DNA of 64,000 bases from an uncultured Cytophagia bacterium (GCA_964541895.1 CAZISM010000001.1:22796-86795), one strand, 5' to 3'. Counted from the first letter of the stretch, positions 11,852-55,383 are shown. Numbers and translations: made by a program. Notes: a model not told the origin generated them from the letters alone.

Positions 11852-11853
11852 TC

Positions 11854-15907: not shown

Positions 15908-15913
15908 TCAGTT

Positions 15914-17470: not shown

Positions 17471-17471
17471 T

Positions 17472-20168: not shown

Positions 20169-20244
20169 CTATCGTGTCCTTGTGGCATGCGACGAGGCCG
20201 CACATCATATTGTGTGGTAACACGTTAAACCGGGAATGGTCATC

Positions 20245-23610: not shown

Positions 23611-23642
23611 CATGGGCGTCAACGGGGGATACACGTGGAATT

Positions 23643-24131: not shown

Positions 24132-24134
24132 TCT

Positions 24135-24722
24135 ATGAATTCGCTCCTGTACATCACCGTTGGATTGATCATTATCGGCATGCTGACGCTGTTGCTCATA
24201 CAAATGGACACCACCGTTAAAATCCATTCCACCTTCATGGTTCATGCTATGGCGAACGGAGGCAACCTGAATGTCATTAGCCGCATCCTGGAGTTTGATC
24301 TGCGCAAAATCGGCCATGGCCTGCGCGCGCCTTTGCGCGCCATCCATGTCGCCGACAGTTCCAGAATCCTGTTCTCGTATGACCAGCAACCGTTCAGCCT
24401 GTTCGACTCCATTCGCGTGGATTACCAGTTGAGCGACAATGCGGTTACGCCCAATCCAAGAGACAAGCTGCTGACCCGGACGGTGAACGGCAATCGACAA
24501 ACCCGGATCTCCATGGGCGTGACCCGGTTGCGCTTTCGCTATTTCAACCAGTCCGGCACCGAGCTGCCGACGCCGGTGGTGTCGGATTCCCTGTCAAAAA
24601 TCAAATCCGTTCGACTGCTCCTGGCCATCCAGAATACCGAGAGCATCAACGGCAAGTATGCAACGGCGTATTACAGCACCCAGATTTCGCCGAAGAATCT
24701 TTTGGTCCGTTACGGACGTTGA
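24135..24722 (+). CDS. Minor pilin-like protein (PilW/GspJ-like architecture)
   Basis: 195 aa. N-terminal helix LLYITVGLIIIGMLTLLLIQ. 3-nt gap to previous gene. Confidence 0.5.
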   Translation: MNSLLYITVGLIIIGMLTLLLIQMDTTVKIHSTFMVHAMANGGNLNVISRILEFDLRKIGHGLRAPLRAIHVADSSRILFSYDQQPFSLFDSIRVDYQLSDNAVTPNPRDKLLTRTVNGNRQTRISMGVTRLRFRYFNQSGTELPTPVVSDSLSKIKSVRLLLAIQNTESINGKYATAYYSTQISPKNLLVRYGR

Positions 24723-24733
24723 GGTAACCGATC

Positions 24734-26002
24734 ATGGGACGATACTCCTCGATGATGGTCATCATGCTTTTCATGGGCGTTCTGTTCATGCGCCTGCAAA
24801 CGCAAAACACCATCGTGCAAGGCTGGAATCAAAAGATGGTGCAGTACAATCGACTGCGGGTTCACAATATTGCCAATGGGGGCGTCACCAATGCGCTGAA
24901 CGCTCTGACCCTGGACGTGAACGCCTCTGCAGCGGTAAGCAATGTCAGTCTGGCCGGCGGCACTTACTCCTACTCCTTCGCGCGCAAGGAGCAGGATGCC
25001 ACTTTGGGGGTTACGGATATCCGCGTCACCGCCATCGGCCGCTATCGCGATTTGAACGACACCGTTGTCGTACTGCTGACCCGCCCCTCATTTTCGCGCT
25101 ACGCTTATTTTACCAATGACGAAGGAACCATCTGGTTTCAGACCGGCGATACACTGACCGGCCCGGTTCATACCAACGGCTATTTCAATATGCAAGGCTA
25201 TCCGGTCTTCTATGGTAAAATAACCAGTCACGGAGTATACAGTTCCTCAAGTCCGTACCGAAAGTATTCGTCTGGCGTTACCAGCCCGGCTTTCGACGGT
25301 GGCTCGGAGTGGGGGGTGCCGACGCTGGAAATGCCAACCGTTATTCCTGCCGATTTGAAAGCGGCGGCGCAATCGGATGGTCTCTATATCGGCACCTATT
25401 CCTATGTATGGATGGAATTCCTGAGCAACGGCACCGTCAAGGTGGCTAAATCCAATTCCAGCAGCACGCCCTCTTCCGGTTCGTATGTCAGCTATGATCT
25501 GAGCTCTTTGAACGGTGTGTTCCTGGTGGAAAAATCAGGCACCACGCCCGTCGTACATGTGAAAGGTACGGTCAATGGCCAGGTAACGGTTGCCTCCTCA
25601 GGTAACATAAAAGTGACGGGCAATCTGCTGCTGGCGGATAATCCGCAGACCAATCCCGCCTCGGACGATATCGCGGGTTTGTGTGCGGCAAAAAATATCA
25701 TTGTAACCAATAATTCGCTGGATGATGATCGTATCATTCAGGCCACCTGCATGACCATGAACACCTCCGTTTCCAGTACAACCAATTTTAATGTGGAAAA
25801 CTACAGTACAACCCGGTACGGCACTCTGAGCCTGCTGGGAGGGCTGATACAACGGGGTCGTGGAGCAGTAGGTACGGTGGGTACGGCCACCACTCGAAAA
25901 GGATATATCAAGGATTATGTCTGGGATTCCCGGCTGCAGGACATAGCACCGCCCTATTTCCCCATGCTCTTTGTGCTGCGCAAAATATCCTGGTATGATT
26001 AA
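24734..26002 (+). CDS. PilX-like minor pilin/pilus assembly protein
   Basis: 422 aa. N-terminus MMVIMLFMGVLFMRLQTQNTIVQGWNQ resembles the PilX_N helix followed by Q/N-rich segment. Large beta-rich body. Confidence 0.5.
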   Translation: MGRYSSMMVIMLFMGVLFMRLQTQNTIVQGWNQKMVQYNRLRVHNIANGGVTNALNALTLDVNASAAVSNVSLAGGTYSYSFARKEQDATLGVTDIRVTAIGRYRDLNDTVVVLLTRPSFSRYAYFTNDEGTIWFQTGDTLTGPVHTNGYFNMQGYPVFYGKITSHGVYSSSSPYRKYSSGVTSPAFDGGSEWGVPTLEMPTVIPADLKAAAQSDGLYIGTYSYVWMEFLSNGTVKVAKSNSSSTPSSGSYVSYDLSSLNGVFLVEKSGTTPVVHVKGTVNGQVTVASSGNIKVTGNLLLADNPQTNPASDDIAGLCAAKNIIVTNNSLDDDRIIQATCMTMNTSVSSTTNFNVENYSTTRYGTLSLLGGLIQRGRGAVGTVGTATTRKGYIKDYVWDSRLQDIAPPYFPMLFVLRKISWYD

Positions 26003-26146: not shown

Positions 26147-27646
26147 TCATGGCATGATGATCACCACATCGATGCGGCGGTTTTGCATGCGACCTTCGGA
26201 TGTTTCGTTGTTGGCAATGGGGCGGCTTTCACCGTAGCCGATCGCTTCGATGTTTTCCGCTGCGGTGGCTGCATTGGCGATAAAATAGGAGCGAACCGAT
26301 TCGGCGCGTTGGCTGGAAAGGCGTTCATTATAGCGCTCATCGCCCACATGGTCGGTGTGACCTTCGATGATCACTCTGGAATCCGGATATTCGCGCATGG
26401 CCCGTTCCACTTTGGCCAACAGGCTAAAGTACTCTGGTTGAATTACGGATTTGCCGACCGGGAAGGTCAGGCCGATCAGGCGCACGATCAAATGCTGTCC
26501 GTCCAGCAATACCGACGCTTCGTTGGCGTTGAACATGTCGCGCACCTTGACGATGCGGGCTTCGCGCCGCTGTTTCTCTTCCAGCTCTTTCTGCTTGGCC
26601 AGCAGCTCACCCTGCAGTCCGGCCTCTTTTTGTTCAAAAGCCAGTTTTTGATTTTCCGCCTTTTCCGTAAGGGCCGTGATTTGATTTTTAAAAGCGGCTT
26701 CCTGTTTCAGATAGCTCTGTTGATTTCGTTCTGATTCCGCATGAAGGTCTCGCAGATCTTTCAGCAGCGAGCTGCGCTCTTCTTTCAGACTTTTGATGGC
26801 ACTGACCATGTTCTGCGTGGGCCGGCTTAGTACGGTATCGAACGTGGCGACAAAACTGAGCTCCCTGGCCACAGCTGTCAAAGCATCTTCGTACTGGAGT
26901 ATGATCTCTTCGCTGGTACGCTTCTTCTCCTTGAGATAGCGGGTGATCTGCAGGGCATGGCGCGCCTCATAGGTGGCCTTTTCCGCTTTTTCTGTGGCCT
27001 CGGCTACAGCATGGCGGTTTGAGTTGAGGGTTTCCTCGGCCAGCGTCAGCAAGGATTTGGCCGTGGCAAAGGTTTTGGGTGCCTGCTTGTCCGCTTCCAT
27101 CTTTAGCGCCATGGCCACCGCCTCACGGGCCGGTCCGATGACGCTGATTTTGATGGCCACCAGTTCGGAATCGCGGTAGCGGTTGGCCGCTTCCAGCGCT
27201 TTTTGTTTGGCCTTTTGGCTGTCCCCATTCTCAACCGCTGCGCCGGCTTCTTTAAGGGACAGCTCGCTTTTATTGAACTCGTCGAGCGCCACTTCCGGGG
27301 CGCGGGCGTTTAAAGCATCTTCGCGTGCTTTCAGGACCTCCTTGAAAAGGGTTTGACCGTTCCAGAGCGCCAGTTCTGTCTTTTTGACATATTCATTCAT
27401 TTCCTGCAGCCGTTTGCGCACTTCGGGCGCTTCCTTACCTTTTCGAAAATCCTCCAGAGCACGGCCATACAGGGTTGAAACCTGTTCAAAGGCATTAGGT
27501 GACAACAGATCGGCATGCTGTTTTTTCAACTCGGAGATTTTTTTATCCGGCTCCGTGAACAGCAGTTTGAAAAGTTCGTTGTTTTGCGCCGGCAGCGCCC
27601 ACACCAGGCCAAGCAGGCCTGCCACTACCAATAACCGCTTCGACAT
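26147..27646 (-). CDS. OmpA-family peptidoglycan-binding protein with long N-terminal coiled-coil region
   Basis: Signal peptide MSKRLLVVAGLLGLVWALPAQ (GGAGGTGG RBS). C-terminal OmpA_C domain: EGHTDHVGDERYNERLSSQRAESV..RRIDVVI. Confidence 0.85.
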   Translation of the reverse strand: MSKRLLVVAGLLGLVWALPAQNNELFKLLFTEPDKKISELKKQHADLLSPNAFEQVSTLYGRALEDFRKGKEAPEVRKRLQEMNEYVKKTELALWNGQTLFKEVLKAREDALNARAPEVALDEFNKSELSLKEAGAAVENGDSQKAKQKALEAANRYRDSELVAIKISVIGPAREAVAMALKMEADKQAPKTFATAKSLLTLAEETLNSNRHAVAEATEKAEKATYEARHALQITRYLKEKKRTSEEIILQYEDALTAVARELSFVATFDTVLSRPTQNMVSAIKSLKEERSSLLKDLRDLHAESERNQQSYLKQEAAFKNQITALTEKAENQKLAFEQKEAGLQGELLAKQKELEEKQRREARIVKVRDMFNANEASVLLDGQHLIVRLIGLTFPVGKSVIQPEYFSLLAKVERAMREYPDSRVIIEGHTDHVGDERYNERLSSQRAESVRSYFIANAATAAENIEAIGYGESRPIANNETSEGRMQNRRIDVVIIMP

Positions 27647-27844
27647 AGCCACCTCCATGTTAATTGGCACAAGAAGAAATTACCATTTTTATCTTTGTAA
27701 AGCAAGCATTTATGATATACACCGCTGTGCGCCTACCTATTCCATAACATAGATGGTGCAGCTTGTGTTCCAGAATTTCAAAAATGCGCTATATTTTTCC
27801 GGCTAAAACTCTTATATTAATTTTACTGTGGAAAGGATCGTGTA

Positions 27845-35903: not shown

Positions 35904-35932
35904 TTGACAAATAGGGCAATCTTGGCTAATTT
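35904..35932 (+). promoter_or_regulatory. Sigma-70-like promoter candidate: -35 TTGACA, 17 bp spacer, -10 TAATTT
   Basis: In the 362-bp divergent intergenic region upstream of the LPP20/CsgG-like gene cluster. Confidence 0.3.
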
Positions 35933-36131
35933 AATGATAATTAATCTCCGCACGGAGTGATTTTATGCTGTAATAGTATGAAAAAATTGGAATAATTGCA
36001 AAAACTTTCTGTTCTAAACTGTGTAGGCCTGCTTTTTGTGAGCCGAATCACCCCAAACGGTTCCTGGGGGTCGTAAAATAACCCTGTCGTTCAGAAAATA
36101 CCTTTACACACATTAACGGGAGGACACTCGC

Positions 36132-37037
36132 ATGAAGCTCCATCGGTTGTGGATGCTCGCCATTGTTATCATGGCCGTAGTGATCGGTAACAGCTTTGCA
36201 CAAAATGTGAATCAACAAGTAGGTAGCAACGGCACTGTGGACTGGTCCAATCAGATTATCCGTTCGACAGGTATCGGATCGCCCAATCCCAATATGCCTG
36301 AAACCGCGCAGCGTGCCGGCGCCATCGATGCCGCAAAAAAGGCGGCCTTGCGGAATTTGCTCGAAACCGTCAAAGGCATGACGCTGGATGCGGAAACAAC
36401 AGTTAGAAATTTCATGGTCGAGAACGACGTCATCAATACGCGCGTCGCCGGCGTGGTTCGCAATTTCACGGTTGTGGATACCAAGTACATGTCCACCGGT
36501 GATATCGAAGTAACGGTGGAAATGCCCATTTCCGGGGCGCTGGCCGATGCCTTGCTGCCGCAAGGGATGGGCGGGATGACCCTGGGGCCTGTGAGCGGTA
36601 CTGTCTGTCCGTGCTGCGGACAGCCGTGGCCGGCGGGTCGGCCGGTTCCCAGCGGCATGACCCTGAATCAGCCTCCGGCGGCGACAACGGCCGGAGGAGC
36701 CTTTACCGGTCTGATCATCGACGCCAAAGGCCTGGGGATTCGCCCGGCCATGGCGCCCAAAATTGTGGATGAATCCGGTCAGGAAATTTATGGCAGCAAG
36801 TTTGTCAGCCGCGATTGGGCGGTGCAAATCGGCATGGTCGGTTACGACAAAGATGTCATGCGCGCCCGCAGCAATGATCGCGTGACGGCGAATCCGCTGG
36901 TGGTCAAGGCCATCAAGGCCTCCGGCCCCAACAAGGCCGACGTGGTGGTGTCCGCTGCTTCGGCAACGGCCATTCGAAATGCGGCGTCCACGCAAAACTT
37001 TTTGGACAAATGCAAAGTGATGTTCATCGTGGATTAA
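36132..37037 (+). CDS. Secreted LPP20-domain protein (LPP20/FlgP-like N-domain plus unknown C-domain)
   Basis: GGAGG RBS. Signal peptide. RAGAIDAAKKAALRNLLETVKG..GDIEVTVEMPI matches LPP20-family motifs. Paralogous N-domain in 38274..39488. Confidence 0.65.
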   Translation: MKLHRLWMLAIVIMAVVIGNSFAQNVNQQVGSNGTVDWSNQIIRSTGIGSPNPNMPETAQRAGAIDAAKKAALRNLLETVKGMTLDAETTVRNFMVENDVINTRVAGVVRNFTVVDTKYMSTGDIEVTVEMPISGALADALLPQGMGGMTLGPVSGTVCPCCGQPWPAGRPVPSGMTLNQPPAATTAGGAFTGLIIDAKGLGIRPAMAPKIVDESGQEIYGSKFVSRDWAVQIGMVGYDKDVMRARSNDRVTANPLVVKAIKASGPNKADVVVSAASATAIRNAASTQNFLDKCKVMFIVD

Positions 37038-37055
37038 CTTTGACGGGAGAAAAAT

Positions 37056-38204
37056 ATGAAACGTCTTTTTGTATTGTGTTCGGCTCTGGCCTTGCTTCTG
37101 GCCATCGTTGGCTGCGGACCCAAGGCCATCAAGGAAGCCTCGGTTCTGGATACGCCGGAAAACCACTATAATCAGGGCATGCGCGAGCTGGATCGCGGCA
37201 ACCTGGACAATGCGATGGGCGAATTCCAGCGTGCGCTGGCGCTGAATCCCAATTTTCCGGAAGGATTTGCCGGTCTCGGACTCGTGTGGGCCAATAAGGG
37301 TGATTTTAAAAAGGCCTATGAAAACGTCGACAAGGCGCTGGACAAGAACGACAAATCTCTGGACAGCCGCGTCATTAAGGGCCGCATCATCGTGATGGAA
37401 CGCAAAGGGGATGACTGGATCGACAAAGCAGTGAAAGAATTCGACAAAGCCAGCGAGATCAATCCCAATTCGCCCAAACCCGTTTTTTACAAAGGGGAGG
37501 CGCTGAAAGCCGGTTACCGTTTTCTCGATGCAGCCAACGCCTATAGCCGGGTCATCGCCATGAAGGGCGACTATGCGGCTGAAGCGGACAAATCCTGGTC
37601 GCTGGTGCAAAAGATACAGCGAGCCGCTCCTGGCACCAAAGTCGGCGCCAAAATCGCCCTGATCGACGAAATCGATCGCGCCGATGTGGCGGTCCTGTTT
37701 ATGGAAGAGCTGAAACTTCTGGAGATCATCAACAAAAAACGCCCCAAAACCTATGACACCGGTTTCAAGGCGCCCGATGATCCGACCAAAATGCAGACCT
37801 CGCAAACCGTGCAAATGGCCGATGTGACGGATGTAGCGACGCATTGGGCCAAAAACTGGATCAACGACATCGTGAAAGCACGCGGCATGGAGGTTTTTCC
37901 GGATCATACCTTCCGTCCGGATGAAAAAATTTCCCGCGCCGATTATGCCATGATGCTGCAGAACATTCTGGTCATGGCCACGGCCGATGAAACCCTGGCG
38001 ACCAAATATATCGGTACCGACTCGAGATTCCCGGATGTCAACGCCAGCCATTATGCCTACAACGCCACCTGCCTGATGGCCGATCGGGGTATCATGTCAG
38101 CCGACAAGATGACCGGCGCCTTTGACATCAACGCCCACGTTTCCGGTGCGGATGCATTATTGATTATTCGTGATTTTCAAAACGCCTTGCGAATGACTTT
38201 TTAA
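37056..38204 (+). CDS. TPR-repeat lipoprotein with two C-terminal SLH-like domains
   Basis: Lipobox LLAIVGCG. TPR repeats (LALNPNFPEGFAGLGLVW..). C-terminus has two SLH-like segments (FPDHTFRPDEKISRADYAMML; FPDVNASHYAYNATCLMADRGIM). Confidence 0.65.
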   Translation: MKRLFVLCSALALLLAIVGCGPKAIKEASVLDTPENHYNQGMRELDRGNLDNAMGEFQRALALNPNFPEGFAGLGLVWANKGDFKKAYENVDKALDKNDKSLDSRVIKGRIIVMERKGDDWIDKAVKEFDKASEINPNSPKPVFYKGEALKAGYRFLDAANAYSRVIAMKGDYAAEADKSWSLVQKIQRAAPGTKVGAKIALIDEIDRADVAVLFMEELKLLEIINKKRPKTYDTGFKAPDDPTKMQTSQTVQMADVTDVATHWAKNWINDIVKARGMEVFPDHTFRPDEKISRADYAMMLQNILVMATADETLATKYIGTDSRFPDVNASHYAYNATCLMADRGIMSADKMTGAFDINAHVSGADALLIIRDFQNALRMTF

Positions 38205-38273
38205 ATTCCAGAAAGGCGGCGGAGGCGGACCGTGAAAGAGGCCCGTCGCCGCCGCTTCTGCCGAGAAACGGAG

Positions 38274-39488
38274 ATGACTTTGAGCAGAAAACCGCTGTAT
38301 GTGATCCTGTTGCTGGGCATGCAGTTGGCCTTTGGTCAAACCGGATCGCAGCAGGTGCAGGCCACCGGCATGGGGGCTATCACCTACAACGATGTTGCGG
38401 CGGCGCGCGATCGTGCCTTGCAGGACGCTTTGCGCAAAGCCGTGGAACAAACGCTGGGCACGTTTATCGACTCCCAGACACGCGTTGAAAACTATATGGT
38501 CGTTGAGGACCGGATTCTGAATTGGACCCGCGGCTATGTCAACAATTATCAGATCGTCGCTGAACGGAAAGCGGCCGCGGACATGTATGAAGTCACCGTG
38601 AACGCCACCGTGGATGTCGGCGACCTTTCCAAAGACATGAATGCGCTGCAGAATCTGATTCAGAACATGGGCAATCCACGGCTCATGTTTCTGGTGGATG
38701 AAAAAAACATCGGCGATACGTTTGACCGCTACCACTATTTCGCCGTTGATATGACGGCCACGGAAACGGTTCTGATGAATAAATTCATGGAGAAAAACTT
38801 TGAGGTCGTGGATCCGTCGACCGTTCGCGCCAACAAGGAACGCGATGCGGTCATGGCGGCCATCAACGGTGACAACAGAGCGGCGGCGGCCATTGCCAAC
38901 GCGCTCGATGCGGAGGTGGTCATCACCGGCAAAGCCGTGGTTACCGTCGCCAGCGGTGTAAATCTGGCCGGTATGAAATCGTGTCAGGCCAATATCACCG
39001 CCCGTGTTATCGACGCCGATGTCGGCAGCGTTCTGGCCACCTCGATGAAAAACGCCGCCTATCCCCATATCGACGAGGTGACCGGCGGCAGCAAGGCGAT
39101 TGAAAAAGCGGCCGGTGCGCTGGCCGACGAACTCATCGCCAGAATCACTGAAAAATGGCGCAGCAAATTCTATCAGGCGGCCACCGTCAAGCTGCTGGTC
39201 ACCGGTTTGAGCAGTTATACCGATGCTTCCAACTTTCGCGGTGCGCTGCAGTATCTGGGGCGCGGCATCAAAGCCGTCAACCAGCGCAACATGAACGCCG
39301 GCGTGGGTGAATTCGATGTACAGATCGCCGGCAATGCCGATCAGTTGGCGCGCGAGCTCGATCAACGCAAGGTGACTAATTATTCAATCGTGGTAACAGG
39401 GGCGACCGCCAACAAGGTAACGTTAAAAGTGGTTCATGAAAACACAGGCGCTGCTCCTGCAGCTGCTGATACCCTGCGGCAAAATTGA
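38274..39488 (+). CDS. Secreted LPP20-domain protein with central CsgG/LpoB-like alpha/beta domain; ORF track GTG start at 38232
   Basis: Signal peptide MTLSRKPLYVILLLGMQLAFGQ. N-domain paralogous to 36132..37037. Central RLMFLVDEKN..NALDAEVVITGKAV pattern resembles the CsgG/TolB-N/LpoB fold. Confidence 0.6.
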   Translation: MTLSRKPLYVILLLGMQLAFGQTGSQQVQATGMGAITYNDVAAARDRALQDALRKAVEQTLGTFIDSQTRVENYMVVEDRILNWTRGYVNNYQIVAERKAAADMYEVTVNATVDVGDLSKDMNALQNLIQNMGNPRLMFLVDEKNIGDTFDRYHYFAVDMTATETVLMNKFMEKNFEVVDPSTVRANKERDAVMAAINGDNRAAAAIANALDAEVVITGKAVVTVASGVNLAGMKSCQANITARVIDADVGSVLATSMKNAAYPHIDEVTGGSKAIEKAAGALADELIARITEKWRSKFYQAATVKLLVTGLSSYTDASNFRGALQYLGRGIKAVNQRNMNAGVGEFDVQIAGNADQLARELDQRKVTNYSIVVTGATANKVTLKVVHENTGAAPAAADTLRQN

Positions 39489-39578
39489 CCGGTGTATCAG
39501 CTCTACGCACTCTTTTGCCGCCGTGATTCCAGCAAGGAGTCAGACTCTGACAGAGAAGATTTATAAGTGAGGTGTTCC

Positions 39579-40481
39579 ATGCGCAAAGTAATTGCTTCAA
39601 TTTTTATCCTGATGGTCGCCGTGACCATCGTAGCCGCCCAGGGGAAGAAACGAGTCGCTGTGTTTACTTTCGAGGACAAAACGGCGCATACGTGGCACTG
39701 GTGGACCGGGCAGCCGGTGGGGGAGGGGATGGCGGATATGCTGATCACATCCCTTGTAAAGACGGGAAAATATACCGTGCTGGAGCGAACACAGATCGCC
39801 AAACTGATGGAAGAACAAAAGCTGGGCCAGACCGGTGCCGTCACGCCGGAGAGCGCGGCCAAAGTGGGGCAGCTGCTCGGCGTCGAACTGGCCATTATGG
39901 GTTCGGTAACCGAATTCGGCTATTCCAAGAAGGAGGTAGGGGGTGCTCTTAAAAAAGTAGGCTTTGGTGTAGGCGTAAAAAGCCAAAAAGCGACCGTTGC
40001 GGTTGATGTTCGTTTTGTCAATACCAGCAGCGGCGAGATCATGTCCGCGGAATCGGTGCGTGAAGAAGAGTCTTCCAAAGGGATTTCCCTGGACACCCAG
40101 AAATTCGATTTTGACAATCAGAGCCAATTCGACGAGTCCATCGTCGGCAAGGCGACTCGCAAAGCCATTGACAAGATGGTCGGCCTGATCGACGGTGCCT
40201 CTGCCAATGTGTCGTTCTCCGCCAAAATCATCAAAGCCGATGGTCAGATCTTTATCAATGTCGGCGCCGCATCCGGCGTTAAAGTCGGTGATGTGTACAC
40301 CGTGTACCGTAAAGGGGAAGATTTGACCGATCCGGATACAGGCCTGTCGCTGGGCGCCACCGAAAGCAAAATCGGCCGCATCAAAGTGGTCGACAATAAC
40401 ATCGGCAACGGCAAGGCCTCCTCATGTGAAGCCATCGAAGGATCCGGATTTCAGAGGAATGACCTGGTAAAACAGAAATAG
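39579..40481 (+). CDS. CsgG-family protein (curli-type outer-membrane secretion channel homologue); ORF track GTG start at 39567
   Basis: KRVAVFTFEDKT..GEGMADMLITSLVKTGKYTVLERTQIAKLMEEQKLGQTGAV..VGQLLGVELAIMGSVTEFG is the CsgG N-terminal signature. Signal peptide has no lipobox Cys. Confidence 0.75.
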   Translation: MRKVIASIFILMVAVTIVAAQGKKRVAVFTFEDKTAHTWHWWTGQPVGEGMADMLITSLVKTGKYTVLERTQIAKLMEEQKLGQTGAVTPESAAKVGQLLGVELAIMGSVTEFGYSKKEVGGALKKVGFGVGVKSQKATVAVDVRFVNTSSGEIMSAESVREEESSKGISLDTQKFDFDNQSQFDESIVGKATRKAIDKMVGLIDGASANVSFSAKIIKADGQIFINVGAASGVKVGDVYTVYRKGEDLTDPDTGLSLGATESKIGRIKVVDNNIGNGKASSCEAIEGSGFQRNDLVKQK

Positions 40482-40561
40482 CGGCAGCAATGAGCTGAAC
40501 GGGCATGGAGGAGTTGATGCAGCGTGCGACTCCTCTTTTATTTTATGGAGAGTCAGGAACT

Positions 40562-41305
40562 ATGAACATGGGCAAACAGGTGTGCATGATTCTCATGGCG
40601 ATGGCCCTGATCTGGAGTGGAACGGCGCCGGCGGCTAAACCGATCGGAACCTTTGCCTTTATCCTCGGCGGTCCGCAGGATGTTCAAGTGAAAAGCAAAG
40701 GCGGAGCGGTCTGGAATTCGGCCAAGCTGGGACTGACGGTGAGCGACGGCGACTGGATCAAGACCAAAAAAGAGTCGCGTTGTGAAATCAAACTGGCGGA
40801 CAAGAGTCTGATTCGCCTCGGTGAGGAAACCGAGTTTGAATTTACGGCGGCGAATATCACGGCGCAGCAGCGCAACGTCAAGGGCGATTTGAAAACCGGT
40901 CAGGTTTATCTTAACCTGAACACAAAAACGTCCAGCAAAAGTCAGTTTCAGATCAAGGCGCCTACTGCGGTCTGCGCAGTCCGGGGCACCATTTACCGCA
41001 TCGATGCAGACTCGACCACCCAGTGCACCGTGTACGACGGCACCGTGGACGTAGGGCCGGCCAAGTTGTGGGGTCAGCCGGTCAAGCGGGAAGGTAAAAG
41101 CCTGCAACCCTATCAGGTGCCGGGTCCGTCGCAGGTACCGGGTCCGTATGAAGTGAGCCTGGATCAATGGGTACAGATTGTCAAGGGATTCCAGATCACG
41201 GTGCGCCGGGACGGCAAATTCGCTAAAACACAATTCGATGCCCAACAGGATGCCGGGGACGAGTGGGTCAAGTGGAACAAGCAACGTGATGGCATGGTGA
41301 AATAG
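40562..41305 (+). CDS. FecR-domain secreted protein
   Basis: Signal peptide MNMGKQVCMILMAMALIWSGTAPAA. FecR-like beta segment (CEIKLADKSLIRLGEETEFEF..VRGTIYRIDAD). Confidence 0.65.
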   Translation: MNMGKQVCMILMAMALIWSGTAPAAKPIGTFAFILGGPQDVQVKSKGGAVWNSAKLGLTVSDGDWIKTKKESRCEIKLADKSLIRLGEETEFEFTAANITAQQRNVKGDLKTGQVYLNLNTKTSSKSQFQIKAPTAVCAVRGTIYRIDADSTTQCTVYDGTVDVGPAKLWGQPVKREGKSLQPYQVPGPSQVPGPYEVSLDQWVQIVKGFQITVRRDGKFAKTQFDAQQDAGDEWVKWNKQRDGMVK

Positions 41306-41316
41306 CGACACGGACT

Positions 41317-42552
41317 ATGGCCTCTTCCAAATTCGAAAAGATTGACAGCATCATCGTCGTATTCCTTTCTCTGCTCTTCGCTCTTTTTCTATATGAAATG
41401 CGACTGGCGCTGATACCGCCGTTTCTTACGATCATCCTGGTCATTTTACTGCTGCCGCTGCGGCAGCACGCCTATGTTCGCTATATCATCGGTGTGGTGA
41501 TCGCCATATTTGTCTTCTGGTTCATGCGTGAAACCAAAGCCATCATCGCGCCTTTTGCCATCGCGCTGGTATTGGCCTATCTTTTTGACCCGCTGGTCAC
41601 CGCATTGGAAAAAAGACACATTGCGCGCCTGGCCAGCGTATCCATTATTGTGGTTTCGACCGGGTTGATTTTCGGCAGCCTGCTCTATTTCATGATACCC
41701 CGCATGTTCGCGGAAATGCGCGATTTGCTGGTGTTTATGCTCGGGACGCCCACCCGTTTGACCGAATGGTTGAAAGCGGATGGCGCCGAGTTTTTTAAGA
41801 GTCTAGGCATCGATCCGGTGCAGGTGGAGGCGTACATTGCCGCCAAACTGCCGCTCAAGTACTACCAATGGCTGGAAGCGGCCCTCAACTGGGTTATGGC
41901 ACTGCCCAAAAACGCGCCGCGTATTTTCAGCGGCCTGGTCTACGCTGTTCTCATTCCTTTTCTGTTTTTTTATATTCTCAAGGATTTCGACAAGGTCAAG
42001 CGCTGGACCAAAGAGCTGCTGCCCATAGAAAGCAGCTGGGTGGTCAAAGACTATCTGGACCGCATCAATGCCATCATCAGCGGCTTTTTTCGCGGCCAGC
42101 TCATCGTCTGCCTGACGGTTGGAATTTTGACTACGCTGGTGTTGCTGATTCTGCAGGTGCAATATGCCGTTTTGCTCGGCCTGCTGGCCGGCGCGCTCAA
42201 CATTGTGCCCTATGTCGGGCTGGGCATCACGCTGTTTATCGGTCTGCTCATTGGCTTAACCGGGCCCAATCCGATGGTCACATCGGCAAAAATCGTGTTT
42301 GCCATCGAAGGGGTTCGCTTGCTGGAGGGGTCGTTTATTGCCCCGAGAATCGTCGGCGATCGCGTCGGGCTGCATCCGGTTTGGGTGATCTTTTCCATCC
42401 TGATTTTTGCGCATCAGCTCGGCGTTCTGGGACTGGTGATTGCCGTACCGCTGGCAGCCAGCTTGAAGATATTTATCTCCATAGGCATTCGAAGTTACCG
42501 AAGAAGGGTCTGGCGCCGGCCAGTGCGGAAACATGAAGATACGTCGCGTTGA
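41317..42552 (+). CDS. AI-2E family transporter (PerM/YhhT, UPF0118)
   Basis: 8-TM protein. Conserved C-terminal GLLAGALNIVPYVG..GLLIGL motif. Confidence 0.8.
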   Translation: MASSKFEKIDSIIVVFLSLLFALFLYEMRLALIPPFLTIILVILLLPLRQHAYVRYIIGVVIAIFVFWFMRETKAIIAPFAIALVLAYLFDPLVTALEKRHIARLASVSIIVVSTGLIFGSLLYFMIPRMFAEMRDLLVFMLGTPTRLTEWLKADGAEFFKSLGIDPVQVEAYIAAKLPLKYYQWLEAALNWVMALPKNAPRIFSGLVYAVLIPFLFFYILKDFDKVKRWTKELLPIESSWVVKDYLDRINAIISGFFRGQLIVCLTVGILTTLVLLILQVQYAVLLGLLAGALNIVPYVGLGITLFIGLLIGLTGPNPMVTSAKIVFAIEGVRLLEGSFIAPRIVGDRVGLHPVWVIFSILIFAHQLGVLGLVIAVPLAASLKIFISIGIRSYRRRVWRRPVRKHEDTSR

Positions 42553-47191: not shown

Positions 47192-48496
47192 ATGAGGTAC
47201 AAGTTAGTCGTTCTATTCGTGTGTGCCATGGCCTTTGTGACCCAGGCAGCAGATGCACCCAAAGAGAAGGAAGCAAAGCTGGGCATCGGCCTTAATGCGG
47301 GCGTGCAAAAACCGTATTGCGACGTTCTGCACACCGGTTTGGCACCGGCCGGCGAAGTAATGATGCGCCTGCTGTTAGGCAAAATGTTCAACATCTCTCT
47401 TTCTGTAGGTGGAGGCCTGCTGAGTGACGGCTTTTCCTATTCCACCTTTAAAACGACGATGGCGGTGGCGGATTTAAAGCTTAACGTCAATCTGAGCACC
47501 ACAGGCCGCATGCGACCATACCTCTCGGTGGGTGCCAGCGGCTACAGCTTTGATTATAAAAAAGAAAAGCCGTGGGCGATCGGCTTGCCCGGCAATGAGG
47601 GCAAGCGTTTTACCTCCAGCGCTGTTATCTTTGGCGGCGGCGTCGAGTATTTGACCTCGCCGAAATTTGCCATCAACCTCTTTGCCGATTACCGGCATAC
47701 ACCGACTGATTTGCTGGATGGTGCCGAAATCGGCAAAGCCAAGGACGGCTATCTCAACGGCAGAGTCGGTTTCACCTATTATCTGGGCGGCCGTTCCATC
47801 AAAAAAGCCGGCAAGCCGGAGGACGATCTGATCGCCCTGCAACAGGGTGAGGCCGGCGATCTGAACGCAGTGAACAAGGACAAATTGGCGACCTTTGAAG
47901 CCAAGCTCGACAAACTGGAAGCCGGTGACGCCGACCTCTCCATGGAGTCCTATGTGCGACTAAAGTCGCGCGTGGACGAACTTGGCCAGTTGATAGAGAG
48001 CAAAGAGAAAGAGCTGGACGATCTGCACTCGGCGCTGGATTTTAAAAATCGCCGCATCGCGGATCTGGAATCTTCGCTGCAAAAGGCAACAAGCGTCGGC
48101 ATTCCTGCCGGCAGCGTGAGCGTGACGGACTTTAGCCCGGCCTACGATCAGGCTCTGCGCAATTTCTACAGCCGCAACTACAACGAAGCCATTGCCGTGT
48201 TCGAACAGCTCAAGATCAAATATCCCAACCATGCCCTGGCAAGCAACTGCCAATACTGGGTGGGAGAGTGTTACTTTGGCATGCAGAACTATCAGCAAGC
48301 CCTGGACGCATTTCAAGGTGTTTTCAACTGGGCCAATTCCACCAAAAAGGATGATGCAACCCTCATGCTGGGCAGGTGCTATCTCAACCTGAAAGATCAG
48401 GAAAAAGCGCGCGGCTACTTTAAGGGGGTCATCGACGATTATCCGGATAGCGAGTATCGCGAAAAAGCCAGACAATGGCTGAATAGAATAGGCTGA
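47192..48496 (+). CDS. Outer-membrane beta-barrel (OmpA-N-like) fused via coiled coil to YbgF/CpoB-like TPR domain
   Basis: Signal peptide. Beta-strand-rich N-terminal half with aromatic-ended strands. Coiled coil (KLDKLEAGD..IADLESSLQK). C-terminal YbgF-like TPR (NYNEAIAVFEQLKIKYPNHALASNCQYWVGECYF). Confidence 0.7.
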   Translation: MRYKLVVLFVCAMAFVTQAADAPKEKEAKLGIGLNAGVQKPYCDVLHTGLAPAGEVMMRLLLGKMFNISLSVGGGLLSDGFSYSTFKTTMAVADLKLNVNLSTTGRMRPYLSVGASGYSFDYKKEKPWAIGLPGNEGKRFTSSAVIFGGGVEYLTSPKFAINLFADYRHTPTDLLDGAEIGKAKDGYLNGRVGFTYYLGGRSIKKAGKPEDDLIALQQGEAGDLNAVNKDKLATFEAKLDKLEAGDADLSMESYVRLKSRVDELGQLIESKEKELDDLHSALDFKNRRIADLESSLQKATSVGIPAGSVSVTDFSPAYDQALRNFYSRNYNEAIAVFEQLKIKYPNHALASNCQYWVGECYFGMQNYQQALDAFQGVFNWANSTKKDDATLMLGRCYLNLKDQEKARGYFKGVIDDYPDSEYREKARQWLNRIG

Positions 48497-48769: not shown

Positions 48770-50881
48770 TTATTTATGTTCCATGTCATAGACGCCGTTC
48801 CAGTTATCCGGAACGGGATTTTCCAGATTATTCAGACAACGGCCGGTATACAGGCGGGAAGGGCCATCAGAGGGAAAATAGCGCAACACCCTGCGGAATT
48901 GACGCAAGGACTCTGCCCAGCGTCGCTCCCGGTACGCCTGTACGCCTTCGCCGAAAATGTCAACGATAAACTCCTGTTCGATGTCAGGCAGGGTCTTGAT
49001 GCCACGCAATTCGTAGATCCGGAGAGGTTTGCTTCTTCCCATCACCCGCACCAGATCCAGTTCACGAACGCAGACCAGATCCTTGACGGGTTCATAGGTT
49101 TGCTCGCTGATGATGATGGTGGTTTCATAATACTTGTTCAGACCTTCCAGGCGGGCGCCCACGTTTACCTCGTCGCCGATTACTGTGTAGTCGAACATCT
49201 GGCGCGAGCCCAGGTTGCCAACGATCACTTTGCCGCTGTTGATGCCGATACCGATGTTAAAGTATTCCTTGTAGTCAATGGACCAACGCTTCTGTATCTG
49301 CCGCAGGTTATCCACCATATCCAAAGCGGTCCTGCAGGCCCGTTCAGCATGATCCGCGTAGAAATAGGGGGCGCCATACACCGCCATGATTTCGTCGCCG
49401 ACAAATTTGTCGAGGGTGCCGTCGTATTTAAAGATGATCTCGACCATTTCAGACAGATATTCCTGCAAGCGATGAACGACCACTTCAGGTTCATGGGTTT
49501 CTGAAAACGAAGTAAACCGTCTGATATCGGAAAACAGCACGGTCAATTCCCTGCGCTCTCCGCCATAGGAGGGCAACTCGCCGCTGCTGAGCATTTTTTC
49601 TACCACGCTGGGGGCAACATACTGCTGAAAGGTTTTGCGAATACGGGCTTTTTCTCTCTGTTCGGTAACCGTCTGGAAGGCCAGTCCGACAATGTAGGTG
49701 AATAGCACGGTGAGTACCGGCATGACCAGGTTGAGAACGGTACGGTAATGAATGAAGAGAAGATACCCGGCCGTAACCGCCAGGAGCCCCAGGCTGACGC
49801 TGACAAAAAGTGCGCGAAACGGTTTGAGGGACAGGGTGACCGCGCTGGTCAACAGGGCCAACAGGATCACAAGAGTGGCTGTTAGCCACAGGGGGGCATC
49901 GCGCAGAAACGCATGGTGAAGCAGCGTATTCAAGGCATTGGCGTGCATCTCTACGCCCGGCAATTTTTGTCGCTTGCCGCCATGCTCAAAAAAAGGGGTG
50001 TATTTGTTATCCTGCAATTCTTCCGCCGAAGCGCCGACGAACACTATTTTGTCGCGAAAGGTGTTCCACAGCAGATGCTGTTCAAAGACATCGGTATCTT
50101 CATCTTCGGCGAGATCAAACTCGGCGTCATCCAGAAGAGTGGAGAGTGAATAAGTTCTGAACGTCTGTGCCGGACCTGCGAAATTGACGTACATGGTGTT
50201 ATCCGAAACGGTGGGCACCTGCAGCGGTCCGTACTGAAAAAAGCCTCCGGCCACCCGGGGCGGCGCCAGGCCGGGACGGACAGCGTGCAGGGACAAAAAG
50301 GCCTGCACAGCCAGCGGGAAATAGGGGCGGTCTGGCATCTGCTGAAATAGCAAGTATTGCCGGATAAAGCCGTCTGCATCTTCGACGACGTTGACCAGGC
50401 CGATGTCAGCGCCTGTGGCCAGCAGGGGCGCGACGGGCTTGAGAATAAAGTGGTTGTTGACGCTGCGGCGACTCTGATCCAGGACCACCTTGCCGGCCAG
50501 TATGACGTTGCCTGCTCCGGCAACGGCGGCGGCCAGCGAGTCGTCTTCCTGCGGGTGTTCCCGGCTGGGCTCGGTGAACTCTACATCAAAGACGATCAGG
50601 CGGGCGCCGGCCAGCTGCAGGTTGTGGATCATGCGCGCGAAATAGGTTCTCGGATAAGGCCATTTGGTCGGCAGGCTTTTCATGCTTTCATCGTCGATGG
50701 CCACAATAACGATAGAGGTATCGGCTGACGCGTCAGCTCCGCGCAGGCTGAAAAGAGTATTGATAGTACGAAGTTGAAAGTTGCGTGATACACCCAGTGA
50801 AGAGAGGGCCGCGGCCAGCATTAATCCGAGAGAGGCAAACCGCAGAACGTTAAAAGCCAGTTTTGTCGCCTTTTTGCTCAT
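48770..50881 (-). CDS. CHASE2-domain membrane sensor fused to class III adenylate/guanylate cyclase
   Basis: N-terminal TM, periplasmic CHASE2 region, three TM helices. Catalytic domain motifs TVLFSDIRRFT, FVGDEIMAVYG, GIGINSGKVIVGNLGS. Confidence 0.85.
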   Translation of the reverse strand: MSKKATKLAFNVLRFASLGLMLAAALSSLGVSRNFQLRTINTLFSLRGADASADTSIVIVAIDDESMKSLPTKWPYPRTYFARMIHNLQLAGARLIVFDVEFTEPSREHPQEDDSLAAAVAGAGNVILAGKVVLDQSRRSVNNHFILKPVAPLLATGADIGLVNVVEDADGFIRQYLLFQQMPDRPYFPLAVQAFLSLHAVRPGLAPPRVAGGFFQYGPLQVPTVSDNTMYVNFAGPAQTFRTYSLSTLLDDAEFDLAEDEDTDVFEQHLLWNTFRDKIVFVGASAEELQDNKYTPFFEHGGKRQKLPGVEMHANALNTLLHHAFLRDAPLWLTATLVILLALLTSAVTLSLKPFRALFVSVSLGLLAVTAGYLLFIHYRTVLNLVMPVLTVLFTYIVGLAFQTVTEQREKARIRKTFQQYVAPSVVEKMLSSGELPSYGGERRELTVLFSDIRRFTSFSETHEPEVVVHRLQEYLSEMVEIIFKYDGTLDKFVGDEIMAVYGAPYFYADHAERACRTALDMVDNLRQIQKRWSIDYKEYFNIGIGINSGKVIVGNLGSRQMFDYTVIGDEVNVGARLEGLNKYYETTIIISEQTYEPVKDLVCVRELDLVRVMGRSKPLRIYELRGIKTLPDIEQEFIVDIFGEGVQAYRERRWAESLRQFRRVLRYFPSDGPSRLYTGRCLNNLENPVPDNWNGVYDMEHK

Positions 50882-50918
50882 GTTGCCCTGTTCAGAGAGT
50901 GCGCCGCGGCGAGCCGGA

Positions 50919-53501: not shown

Positions 53502-53517
53502 GGGATCCTTTAGTAAG

Positions 53518-54189: not shown

Positions 54190-54205
54190 ATTTACCTCTC
54201 TCAGC

Positions 54206-55342: not shown

Positions 55343-55383
55343 AACCCCTCCAAAGGTTCGATTGCAACTATCATACATAAAGT

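Follow-up and report, generated by a model that had tools for sequence, protein, structure and literature searches.

A conserved five-gene cluster in candidate division KSB1 encodes exported proteins that may form a wall-anchored periplasmic scaffold

We analyzed a 64-kb stretch of DNA (the window) from a MAG of the uncultured candidate division KSB1 (Zhuqueibacterota). It contains a cluster of five genes, P1 to P5, that are conserved together and encode exported proteins. With slightly better than even confidence, we propose that the products make up a Sec-exported, multi-protein periplasmic scaffold that is anchored to the wall and likely forms a ring or lattice beneath the outer membrane. 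This reading rests on sequence, structural models and analogy. A scaffold appears likelier than a curli-type secretion pore because the exported proteins share modules with flagellar outer rings. The original prediction described four consecutive exported proteins and their domains at 36132-40481. We found all four ORFs at those coordinates, co-directional on the + strand, and added P5 to the cluster. The genes, their domains and the gene that follows are:

36132..37037, + strand: P1, 301 aa, exported; signal peptide ...SFA/Q, no Cys
about 36315-36524, + strand: P1 N-terminal FlgP/LPP20-type SHS2 domain; LPP20 and FlgP profile matches
36684-37034, + strand: P1 C-terminal Tp0624-D2-like domain; profile match to Tp0624
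37056..38204, + strand: P2, 382 aa lipoprotein; lipobox IVGC, Cys20 at 37113
about 37155-37595, + strand: P2 TPR region; TPR_2 50 bits
37827-37949, + strand: P2 SLH module 1; SLH 37.3 bits in two stretches (cut-off 20.8)
about 38028-38177, + strand: P2 SLH module 2; second stretch of the same SLH match
38274..39488, + strand: P3, 404 aa, exported, FlgT/LipL46-like; an alternative GTG start at 38232 gives 418 aa
38352-38606, + strand: P3 FlgT_N SHS2 domain; FlgT_N 32.6 bits (cut-off 28.8)
about 38676-39173, + strand: P3 CsgG/TolB-N-like middle domain, from the model
about 39180-39437, + strand: P3 small alpha/beta C-terminal domain
39579..40481, + strand: P4, 300 aa, exported, without lipobox; deposited gene calls start at ATG 39579, not GTG 39567
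39636-40190, + strand: P4 CsgG-family domain; CsgG (PF03783) 134 bits, model positions 6-197 of 210
39687-39728, + strand: P4 invariant WW-G-P-G loop, where CsgG has its constriction loop
40242-40469, + strand: P4 FlgT_C/TsaP-like beta domain; TsaP sequence-profile match, E 7e-7
40568..41305, + strand: P5, 245 aa, exported, LipL45/Lsa33-like; FecR domain at 40757-41047 (60.8 bits)
41317..42552, + strand: AI-2E family transporter; AI-2E_transport 172 bits, 11 bp past P5, co-directional

The LPP20 domain predicted for the first protein is marginal by its own profile, whose cut-off of 25.9 bits it narrowly misses with 25.6. Further support comes from Campylobacter FlgP (PDB 9hmf_C), which P1 matches with an E of 1e-3 in an alignment that runs gap-free through the ring-forming hairpin insert. 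A Cys/Pro-rich linker joins this domain to the C-terminal domain, whose profile matches residues 140-263 of Tp0624 (5jir_B) with an E of 8e-10. P2 is the predicted TPR lipoprotein with two SLH modules. All P2 orthologs shown carry an xGC/GPK motif, and 28/50 fit the strict lipobox pattern. The other accessory proteins had also been taken for lipoproteins, a view that does not hold. A lipobox or conserved Cys occurs only in P2 and, where present, in the P4 paralog P4b; the signal peptides of P1, P3, P4 and P5 are Cys-less, and a lipobox was found in 0/49 P1 orthologs.

For P3, the expected combination of an LPP20-type domain with a CsgG-like alpha/beta domain was borne out. FlgT_N, matched by P3, is the flagellar equivalent of the LPP20 fold, and the AF2 model of P3 (pLDDT 77) includes a CsgG/GNA1162/PelC-like alpha/beta domain. 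The AF2 models describe single chains, with moderate confidence (pLDDT 77-80). FlgT (8z5n/3w1e) was the best Foldseek match of P3, followed by GNA1162, the CsgG pre-pore and PelC; a PqiC-like protein also matched. The P3 profile matches FlgP 9hmf_C (E 2e-4), and P1 and P3 each align gap-free to C. jejuni FlgP residues 75/85-163, hairpin insert included. Profile-profile comparison of the P3 middle domain with P4 gave a weak match (hhalign probability 2.8%). P3 probably starts at ATG 38274 rather than at the deposited GTG 38232; cluster members of 402 aa favor the later start.

The cluster is syntenic across genomes. The order P1-P2-P3-P4 is kept in ~96% of 59 related genomes, and essentially every recovered KSB1 genome carries the cluster. 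At loci found through P3, the companions were P1 in 43/44, P2 in 49/51, P4 in 50/52 and P5 in 34/39, the last lying after P3 or P4 in these KSB1 loci and likewise in loci from Nitrospinota, Myxococcota and Pseudomonadota. This synteny exceeds chance by far. The original prediction withstands both the CsgG profile search and the comparison across genomes, since the CsgG assignment holds and the genes stay together in many genomes. A P1-(P2)-P3-FecR core also occurs in four MAGs that carry the labels Nitrospinota, Myxococcota, Pseudomonadota and Fibrobacterota; the Fibrobacterota MAG keeps P1-P2-P3 alone, and the Pseudomonadota and Myxococcota loci have the core without any CsgG-like gene. The cross-phylum core is thus P1-(P2)-P3-P5, and the non-lipidated CsgG-family protein P4 is a KSB1 addition. 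Because the core recurs in other phyla, we regard the CsgG-like gene as a lineage add-on outside it. Many KSB1 lineages also add P4b, which is lipidated.

We found no terminator-like site between genes from P1 to Der, and the operon continues downstream into the housekeeping genes DUF512 and Der. The AI-2E family transporter gene follows P5 in 11 KSB1 loci, and one lies near the P3 gene in a Gemmatimonadota locus (L063). It is possibly co-transcribed with P1-P5, its membership being uncertain. Three features stand upstream of P1:

35904..35932, + strand: putative sigma-70-like promoter TTGACA-N17-TAATTT, read from sequence, in the divergent intergenic region 5' of P1
36037..36052, + strand: CRP/FNR-type palindrome TGTGA-N6-TCAC(C), 81 bp 5' of the P1 start codon
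36074..36079, + strand: -10-like hexamer TAAAAT, read from sequence, 29.5 nt past the palindrome center

The cluster had been placed downstream of an ECF sigma envelope-stress operon. That operon lies on the opposite strand, is divergently transcribed and adjoins the cluster in only 12/33 related loci; the conserved element is instead a CRP-type operator. The palindrome has its sole exact match across the window here. In 713 kb of related loci, 25/26 exact matches fall directly 5' of the P1 ortholog, covering 25/48 loci; allowing ≤1 mismatch raises coverage to 28/48, a ~14-fold enrichment. TAnnnT-type hexamers occur at the same spacing from the palindrome in orthologous loci. From this spacing we infer class II activator geometry, with the site centered at -41.5. 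The operon would then be expressed from a class II promoter that needs an activator of the CRP family, of cyclic-nucleotide type. The CTTGACAA...TAAtTTA block is kept in seven alignable orthologous intergenic regions, and an N-run hides the eighth.

In the proposed scaffold, P2 would be lipid-anchored, presumably in the outer membrane. Its two SLH modules would fix the assembly to the wall and its TPR repeats would recruit partners. The earlier view of an envelope system with a cell-wall-polymer anchor, the two SLH modules, is supported. P1 and P3 would each bring a FlgP/FlgT_N-type SHS2 domain with a beta-hairpin insert. The same insert polymerizes through sheet extension in flagellar basal disks and H-rings, and Drobnic et al. 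tied the FlgP insert to ring oligomerization (PMC12222027). P3 and P4 would supply CsgG/TolB-N-type alpha/beta domains, a fold that may build rings here as in CsgG, PelC, PqiC and FlgT. The C-terminal beta domain of P4 appears to be of the FlgT_C/TsaP type, which in known systems docks wall-binding partners; in TsaP, such domains form spokes around the secretin (bioRxiv 10.1101/2020.05.29.123786). FecR-domain P5 would be a constant partner. It is from the homology of these modules that we infer ring formation. Such a scaffold could brace the outer membrane to the wall generally, or serve a trans-envelope machine.

P4 is central to an alternative that we consider unlikely, a CsgG-type outer-membrane channel. 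Its pore would export an unfolded protein, an amyloid or a polysaccharide-anchoring factor encoded elsewhere, and P1, P2, P3 and P5 would assist or gate that pore from the periplasm and provide the wall anchor, like curli CsgEFG or Caulobacter HfaABD. The original prediction called P4 a bona fide CsgG, and family membership is clear. The 134-bit match spans nearly the whole Pfam model, PDB CsgG is matched with an E of 2e-9, and identity is 23% with 149 residues structurally aligned; in sequence, P4 is closer to CsgG than to FlgT_M (E 0.16). P4 keeps Gly-rich TM1 equivalents with the same position, length and G-x-G-x-G pattern as in CsgG, and three of its four TM-equivalent strands (TM1a, TM1b, TM2b) match E. 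coli in the hydrophobicity of one face. The retained TM1-like segments and WW-G-P-G loop would allow for a P4 pore. In addition, CsgG/HfaB-family clusters with lipoproteins and without curli genes are widespread in Gram-negative bacteria, though largely uninvestigated, and in A. baumannii such a cluster has an effect on PNAG, CUP pili and biofilm (bioRxiv 10.1101/2021.05.19.444899).

The role of P4 as a central channel fares less well. A lipobox was found in 0/48 homologs. E. coli CsgG without lipidation is said to remain a soluble pre-pore (reportedly the finding of Goyal et al. in 2014). In the TM2a equivalent, mean hydrophobicity on the best face is -0.56 +/- 0.36 versus +1.09 in E. coli, and in the AF2 model the next helix begins at residue 188, which leaves ~19 residues for TM2. 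The segment FDES(I/L)VGKATR is almost invariant, which is atypical of a lipid-facing strand, and the best structural match of P4 is periplasmic FlgT. The predicted lack of curli genes was confirmed, with no match to the CsgA, CsgB, CsgE or CsgF families among 49 window products scanned, and no Q/N-rich or curlin-repeat ORF occurs in the window. An amyloid or other unfolded cargo is pure speculation. The core in other phyla does without the CsgG-like gene altogether. Of the predicted channel with accessory lipoproteins and wall anchor, we therefore retain the anchor, the envelope location and the CsgG homolog, and set aside the central channel and any lipoprotein besides P2.

Peptidoglycan synthesis or remodelling offers a further, distinctly unlikely, explanation. 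The proteins would be regulators or scaffolds akin to LpoB, LpoA, CpoB or TolB-Pal, with outer-membrane-anchored TPR and LpoB-fold proteins reaching the wall machinery. P4 and P4b match LpoB weakly (P4b with 26.6 bits, cut-off 22.3), TolB-N, LpoB and LptE are among the fold matches, wall-binding modules in or beside the cluster include SLH, SPOR (L066) and a TPR+Amidase_3 gene (L068), and the operon runs on into DUF512 and Der. However, the LpoB resemblance is generic, since the fold is common to many unrelated lipoproteins. Neither a penicillin-binding protein nor a Tol gene is linked, and the SHS2, Tp0624-D2 and FecR parts are without counterpart in those systems.

We give similarly low credence to an accessory ring for a secretin machine (type IV pilus/T2SS), in which P2 would resemble the TPR pilotin Tgl/PilW and P4 would resemble TsaP, supporting the secretin 16 kb upstream in the window. 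TsaP is the best PDB sequence match of the P4 C-terminal domain and pairs a wall-binding domain with FlgT_C-like domains, and genes for T2SSF, two T2SSE ATPases and a secretin lie at 10.5-20.2 kb of the window. In NCBIfam, the N-terminal part of P2 matches Tgl best (E 3.5e-10), then PilW, but both matches fall far under their cut-offs and reflect generic TPR repeats. Moreover, the pilus cluster and the operon lie 10 kb apart, with unrelated genes on both strands between them, and no pilus or secretin gene occurs ≤8 kb from the cluster in any of 60+ related loci.

That the cluster encodes a flagellar motor accessory, equivalent to an H-ring, T-ring or basal disk in KSB1, is very improbable: the module set parallels FlgT, FlgP, FlgO, MotX and MotY, and NCBI names P3 homologs 'flagellar assembly protein T N-terminal domain-containing protein', but no flagellar gene occurs in the window or any flank, the matches to Pfam FlgT_M (E 0.16) and FlgT_C (20.4 bits, cut-off 27) are sub-threshold, and the near-universal KSB1 distribution of the cluster is unlike that of flagellar genes, which are reported from clades II and IV only (PMC9012183), clade II having since been removed from KSB1 (PMC11683472).

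We compared the proposed scaffold with known systems. The CsgG/HfaB clusters with GNA1162-like lipoproteins likewise pair a CsgG-family gene with envelope partners and no curli subunits, and GNA1162-like genes adjoin P3-type genes in two loci (L064, L065). Those clusters have three or four lipoprotein genes and a lipidated CsgG homolog, and lack a TPR-SLH lipoprotein, a Tp0624-D2 domain and a FecR protein. In its core fold and TM1-like hairpin P4 resembles E. coli CsgG, and it has a conserved loop where the constriction lies. Unlike CsgG, P4 has no lipid anchor, its TM2 equivalent is short and polar, it carries the additional FlgT_C/TsaP-like domain, and csgE, csgF, csgA and csgB are absent here. 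P3 matches the NCBIfam model of Leptospira LipL46 almost full length (E 9e-21, score 74 against a cut-off of 400), and P5 matches Lsa33 (E 7e-16) and LipL45 (E 8e-15) through its FecR domain, with scores of 55-58 against cut-offs of 350-420. The Leptospira proteins are lipidated, in contrast to P3 and P5, and the literature found describes LipL46 chiefly as a surface or adhesin antigen.

TsaP has FlgT_C-like domains like that of P4, paired with a peptidoglycan-binding module (bioRxiv 10.1101/2020.05.29.123786). It consists of a LysM and two FlgT_C-like domains with no CsgG-like domain, and no secretin is linked to our cluster. In Treponema pallidum Tp0624 (PDB 5JIR), D1 and D2 are found only together and were treated as one unit, fused to an OmpA-like wall-binding domain, for which an envelope scaffold was proposed (PMC5104382). 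P1 shows the same order, an SHS2-like, putatively D1-type domain followed by the D2 homolog. A wall-binding module is linked in both cases, fused in Tp0624 and present here as SLH in the neighboring P2. The Vibrio H-/T-ring is built from FlgT, the LPP20-like FlgP, FlgO, MotX with its helical repeats and MotY, which binds the wall (bioRxiv 10.64898/2025.12.02.691832). It differs in that no flagellar genes are linked here, most KSB1 lineages reportedly being without flagella (PMC9012183). The three FlgT domains are split between P3 (N+M) and P4 (M+C), the wall-binding module is SLH rather than OmpA-like, P1 has an extra Tp0624-D2 domain, and the partners include an obligate FecR-domain protein. 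Common to both are the FlgP/FlgT_N SHS2 domain with hairpin insert in P1 and P3, FlgT as the best structural match for P3 and P4, and a make-up in which soluble ring proteins occur alongside an anchoring lipoprotein, a helical-repeat protein and a module that binds the wall.

The cluster comprises five genes (P1-P5) at 36132-41305 on the plus strand, spaced 18-90 bp apart. We assigned the domain content of their products using Pfam and NCBIfam scans:

36132-37037, plus strand: P1, 301 aa; LPP20 at 25.6 bits (cut-off 25.9); C-terminal half without a Pfam or NCBIfam assignment
37056-38204, plus strand: P2, 382 aa; lipobox IVGC; TPR repeats; two SLH (PF00395) stretches, 37.3 bits (cut-off 20.8), the best at residues 258-298
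38274-39488, plus strand: P3, 404 aa; FlgT_N at 32.6 bits (cut-off 28.8); sub-threshold, near-full-length match to Leptospira LipL46 (E 9e-21)
39579-40481, plus strand: P4, 300 aa; CsgG at 134 bits; FlgT_C-like C-terminal domain (sub-threshold)
40568-41305, plus strand: P5, 245 aa; FecR at 60.8 bits; LipL45/Lsa33-like

The five protein sequences are on record at NCBI, with close homologues named as candidate division KSB1, the phylum now called Zhuqueibacterota (PMC11683472). A 667-aa ORF on the minus strand (36048-38051) runs antisense over P1 and P2. We dismissed this ORF, which is most likely a shadow of GC-rich coding sequence; the records list plus-strand P1 and P2 here.

Each of the five proteins begins with a signal peptide. 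The scans and signal peptides confirm the original prediction of four consecutive exported proteins with LPP20, TPR plus SLH, and CsgG domains, including the SLH modules of the TPR lipoprotein. The P2 homologues of two related loci, L064 (Nitrospinota) and L066, likewise received SLH calls. The accompanying description of several accessory lipoproteins did not hold. P2 alone has a lipobox, and lipobox-like motifs are rare among homologues of P1 (0/49), P3 (1/42), and P5 (2/41). The FecR domain of P5 is preceded by a cleavable-type signal peptide without an N-terminal anti-sigma region. We rejected P5 as a FecR-type anti-sigma factor, as it does not combine an N-terminal cytoplasmic anti-sigma domain with a TM helix. 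The window also encodes a 507-aa OmpA-family protein (26147-27670, minus strand) and an outer-membrane beta-barrel protein (47192-48496, plus strand) with a fused coiled coil and TPR repeats resembling those of CpoB/YfiO. Canonical peptidoglycan-binding modules thus coexist with the SLH protein P2.

Three co-directional genes follow P5, coding for an AI-2E family transporter (41317-42552), a DUF512 radical-SAM-like protein, and the GTPase Der. A terminator scan of the window found no intergenic terminator-like site between P1 and Der, which is weak evidence that this entire stretch may be co-transcribed. The AI-2E transporter also lies 3' of the cluster in 11 KSB1 loci and in L063 from Gemmatimonadota (13630-14709), which hints at a conserved association.

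We examined conservation by scanning the P3 alignment against one genome per species. This recovered 59 loci, of which 58 appear KSB1-like by P3 identity (at least 38%) and shared gene order; depositor labels vary. The remaining locus is from a Fibrobacterota MAG. We labeled ORFs of the related loci with the window proteins and counted only loci long enough to judge. P1 was present in 43 of 44 loci, P2 in 49 of 51, and P4 in 50 of 52, while 34 of 39 had P5 within 5.5 kb. The clustering of P1-P5 exceeds chance, and the expected synteny in related genomes is borne out.

Several loci carry additional genes. A second CsgG-family paralogue (P4b; CsgG 85 bits, LpoB 27 bits), probably lipidated, lies between P4 and P5 in at least 10 of 39 loci. 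It is found at 10200-11255 in L029, with equivalents in L022, L024, L025, L028, L030, L031, L035-L038, L058, and L061. P4b is not present in the window, whose lineage either lost it or carries it elsewhere. In three deep-branching KSB1 loci (L042, L044, and L050), an inserted gene for a secreted DUF4412 protein separates P4 from the FecR gene. At this position L042 and L044 also have a nucleotidyltransferase-like gene (judged from sequence), and L050 has two tandem small-gene pairs (181+150 aa and 140+141 aa). L059 (285-4163), the KSB1-like locus that diverges most, encodes two further proteins 5' of P3: one is a CsgG/LpoB/FlgO-like protein of 238 aa whose C-terminal tail is hydrophobic, and the other is a 1048-aa lipoprotein ending in an FGE-sulfatase domain. 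This domain also occurs in the gliding/T9SS protein GldK/PorK. L002 (5467-7926; CP070762.1, a complete 5.2-Mb genome) has a 301-aa P3 fragment followed by a P4 homologue, without P1 or P2, and the fragment shares a stop-to-stop frame with the preceding BcGHD glycoside-hydrolase-like ORF. Judging the L002 copy to be rearranged or paralogous, we kept it out of the analysis.

Relatives of the cluster extend beyond KSB1. Using the P3 profile in a full HMMER search, we obtained 9,645 cluster representatives at E <= 1e-3, of which 900 reached E <= 1e-30. Named members were from Nitrospinota, Nitrospirota, Gemmatimonadota, Firestonebacteria, Myxococcota, and deltaproteobacterial/Pseudomonadota MAGs; all were labeled 'hypothetical' or 'FlgT N-terminal domain-containing'. 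The gene contexts of related loci were as follows:

L062, Fibrobacterota: P1, P2, P3
L063, Gemmatimonadota: P1 ... P3, TPR ... CHASE2/cNMP-binding protein, AI-2E transporter
L064, Nitrospinota: lipidated CsgG+FlgT_C-like protein, P1, P2 (TPR+SLH), NHL/fn3/CsgG fusion, P3, FecR
L066: LPP20 gene, P1 C-domain as its own gene, TPR+SLH, P3, TPR+SPOR
L067, Myxococcota: ECF sigma, membrane protein, P1, P3, FecR
L068, Pseudomonadota: TPR+Amidase_3, TPR, P1, P2, P3, FecR

From these contexts, the conserved core is therefore P1-(P2)-P3-FecR. The CsgG-like gene is an addition in particular lineages and dispensable to this core. L064 additionally has, upstream of the cluster, a GNA1162-like gene and a further FlgT_N gene. 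The Amidase_3 domain of the gene heading the L068 cluster is a peptidoglycan amidase. PilZ (c-di-GMP-binding) genes flank the cluster in both L064 (9944-10537) and L068 (3188-3517).

The 362-bp divergent intergenic region between P1 and an ECF operon contains two conserved elements, listed here with a downstream hexamer:

35904-35932, plus strand: sigma-70-like promoter TTGACA-N17-TAATTT, conserved
36037-36052, plus strand: CRP/FNR-type palindrome TGTGA-N6-TCAC, 81 bp before the P1 ATG, conserved
36074-36079, plus strand: TAAAAT hexamer, 29.5 nt after the palindrome center

The spacing of the palindrome and hexamer is the predicted geometry of a class II activator. TGTGA-N6-TCAC has no other exact match in the 64-kb window. 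Related loci totaling 713 kb contain 26 exact matches, and 25 of these sit immediately 5' of a P1 orthologue; allowing one mismatch gave approximately 14-fold enrichment. The deepest KSB1 branches are without the palindrome. We recognized no CRP-family regulator gene in the window. Cyclic-nucleotide genes recur near the cluster, both in other loci (cNMP-binding in L063 and L066, guanylate cyclase in L067) and in the window. On the minus strand, window positions 48770-55378 include a second FecR-domain protein (53518-54297), beside which are a CHASE2 adenylate/guanylate cyclase (48770-50881) and 860-aa and 390-aa proteins without a Pfam match. No Rfam family reached threshold in the 190-nt P1 leader, and we dismissed a pntA-like match there (E 0.2). 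The ECF operon (sigma factor, zf-HC2 anti-sigma factor encoded separately from P5, and LTXXQ protein; 35769-34329) had been noted as an envelope-stress operon directly preceding the cluster. It lies divergently on the opposite strand and is adjacent to the cluster in only 12 of 33 loci. We therefore treat it as a neighbor and reject ECF control of P1-P5. The conserved CRP-type operator gives a testable entry point into regulation of the cluster.

We compared P1 and P3 with known SHS2-domain proteins. The LPP20 domain proposed for P1 falls 0.3 bits under the Pfam cut-off, but it gains support from alignment to Campylobacter jejuni FlgP (9hmf_C). The SHS2 domains of P1 and P3 align to this protein without gaps over the hairpin insert (E 1e-3 and 2e-4, respectively). 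In the LPP20/FlgP family, ring formation correlates with a beta-hairpin inserted between the SHS2 helix and strand 2 (PMC12222027). These alignments place the N-terminal domains of P1 and P3, as predicted members with a ring-type insert, in that family. For P3, a combination of LPP20 and a CsgG/LpoB-like domain had been proposed. The SHS2 domain stands with its label changed from LPP20 to FlgT_N, and the second domain was recovered by structure. The AF2 model of P3 (pLDDT 77) matched FlgT best, spanning its N and M domains (Foldseek E 2e-11), with GNA1162, the CsgG pre-pore, HpaA, PelC, and a PqiC-like protein ranking next. The profile-profile match between P3 and P4 was marginal (hhalign probability 2.8%, E 0.016), so our reading of the P3 middle domain as CsgG-like comes from the structure search. 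No single cluster protein contains all three FlgT domains (N SHS2, M TolB-N/CsgG-like, and C beta-roll) in FlgT order.

No other part of the cluster is as conserved as the C-terminal domain of P1 (~118 residues). Its profile matched residues 140-263 of Treponema pallidum Tp0624 (5jir_B, E 8.2e-10), up to the Cys-containing C-terminal end, which makes domain D2 of Tp0624 (Y198-C317) its homologue. The fold description suggests that the P1 N-domain is equivalent to D1. The authors of the Tp0624 structure found no structural analogue of the D2 fold and suggested a scaffolding role in the envelope or peptidoglycan; D2 was seen only together with D1 and, in treponemes, is fused to an OmpA-like wall-binding domain (PMC5104382). 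The cluster lends genomic context to D1-D2 of this syphilis spirochete protein, whose D2 had neither relatives nor a function on record. LipL46 and LipL45, both Leptospira antigens, gain context likewise; the LipL46 papers appear to be proteomic or adhesin-binding studies.

The main rival to a scaffold is that P4 forms a CsgG-type pore, as originally predicted. P4 matched PF03783 at 134.1 bits (cut-off 20.8; model positions 6-197 of 210), and this strong membership favors a pore. It scored only 37.7 bits against the NCBIfam CsgG equivalog (cut-off 505). P4 is thus a CsgG family member and not an orthologue, and its description as a bona fide CsgG homologue stands at the family level. The TM1 equivalent (134-154 in E. 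coli) is a Gly-rich hairpin that equals CsgG in length and has one hydrophobic face. In a hydrophobic-face test of the P4 hairpins, three of four strands were as hydrophobic on one face as in E. coli, and one was clearly unlike it. The TM2a equivalent (TM2 spans 184-208 in E. coli) has no hydrophobic face (best face -0.56 +/- 0.36 vs +1.09), which counts against a pore. The AF2 monomer model of P4 (overall pLDDT 80.5, low at 118-132 and 170-175) starts the next helix at residue 188, leaving only ~19 residues for TM2. The loop at the CsgG constriction position speaks for a pore in its invariant WW-G-P-G residues (W41, W42, G44, G48, and G50); it is three residues shorter and does not keep E. 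coli Tyr51, Asn55, and Phe56. An almost invariant FDES(I/L)VGKATR segment also argues against a pore, as does the missing lipid anchor. P4 has no lipobox Cys (its signal peptide ends ...IVAA/QGKKR), and lipobox-like motifs were found in 0 of 48 family members.

Genomic context also weighs against a pore. As predicted, no csgE, csgF, or curlin subunit gene was matched by Pfam among the 49 window products scanned, nor did any appear in the flanks of related loci with Pfam calls listed. The proposed search for Gln/Asn-rich repeat cargo covered the window and found no Q/N-rich, curlin-motif, or repeat protein. The CsgG-like gene is, moreover, dispensable in other phyla. We consider a P4 pore improbable. 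P4 is a caution against labeling PF03783 matches as curli channels, being a 134-bit match with no lipid anchor and only partly CsgG-like hairpins.

Structure searches with the P4 model returned Vibrio FlgT (3w1e, E 4.6e-15, 292 columns), FlgT in the LPHT ring (8z5n, E 5.5e-15, 289 columns), and CsgG (E about 3e-8). In sequence-profile comparisons, the P4 N-domain resembles CsgG (E 2e-9) and the C-domain resembles TsaP (E 7e-7); Pfam FlgT_M (E 0.16) and FlgT_C (20.4 bits, cut-off 27) were sub-threshold. TsaP is a secretin-associated ring protein with FlgT_C-like domains that form spokes and a LysM wall-binding domain (bioRxiv 10.1101/2020.05.29.123786). The TsaP resemblance of P4, a resemblance to Tgl, and a T2SS/T4P-like cluster at 10.5-20.2 kb weakly suggest a secretin-associated role; that cluster is unlinked to P1-P5. 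Its full extent is 9415-26002 on the plus strand, where it encodes T2SSF (10511-11851), two T2SSE ATPases (at 11854-13638 and 14618-15907), and a secretin (18435-20168). Alongside these are a response regulator, a pilin-like ORF (9900-10313) and further small ORFs of pilin type, a Big_1/invasin-D3 protein of 1124 aa (20236-23610), and a DUF4900 protein. The cluster P1-P5 is unlikely to have a flagellar role, as flagellar genes are reported in KSB1 clades II and IV only (PMC9012183) and none (flgH/I, flgO/P, motX/Y) was found among the scanned window products or flanks.

All component families are already known, and NCBI labels homologues 'CsgG/HfaB family' or 'FlgT N-terminal domain-containing'. 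CsgG-family clusters without curli genes are widespread and uninvestigated (bioRxiv 10.1101/2021.05.19.444899). Our literature search found no papers joining CsgG with LPP20 or FlgT with CsgG, and the cluster goes unmentioned in two papers on KSB1 genomics (PMC11683472, PMC9012183). The literature found does not describe the five-gene architecture, the cross-phylum core, the FlgT-like P3 and P4, the Tp0624 D2 link, or the CRP-type operator.

Our functional assignment draws on sequence and monomer models from uncultured organisms. We lean slightly toward a model in which the P1-P5 products form a periplasmic ring or lattice, tethered by the P2 lipid and anchored to the wall by its SLH modules. 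A bolder version, possible but doubtful, is that the cluster encodes a free-standing, non-flagellar ring or disk organelle that is widespread in uncultured phyla. Such an organelle would be built of FlgP/FlgT-type SHS2, CsgG/TolB-N-type, and Tp0624 D2 domains, with one lipoprotein reaching the membrane and SLH modules the wall, and a cyclic-nucleotide (CRP-type) regulator would turn it on. It would range across KSB1, Nitrospinota, Nitrospirota, Gemmatimonadota, Myxococcota, deltaproteobacterial MAGs, and Fibrobacterota. Its family could then be the ancestral source of flagellar basal disks, H-rings, TsaP, and perhaps the CsgG pore.

We favor the periplasmic scaffold because of the points against a CsgG pore and because its module set is that of the Vibrio H- and T-rings. 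If this model is correct, the rings found on high-torque flagellar motors have a non-flagellar relative in this cluster, which would be a concrete and widely distributed candidate for the envelope-protein pool that supplied those rings. The Vibrio rings likewise combine SHS2 (FlgP/FlgT_N), CsgG/TolB-N/FlgO-fold, and FlgT_C domains with a helical-repeat protein and a wall-binding module (bioRxiv 10.64898/2025.12.02.691832).
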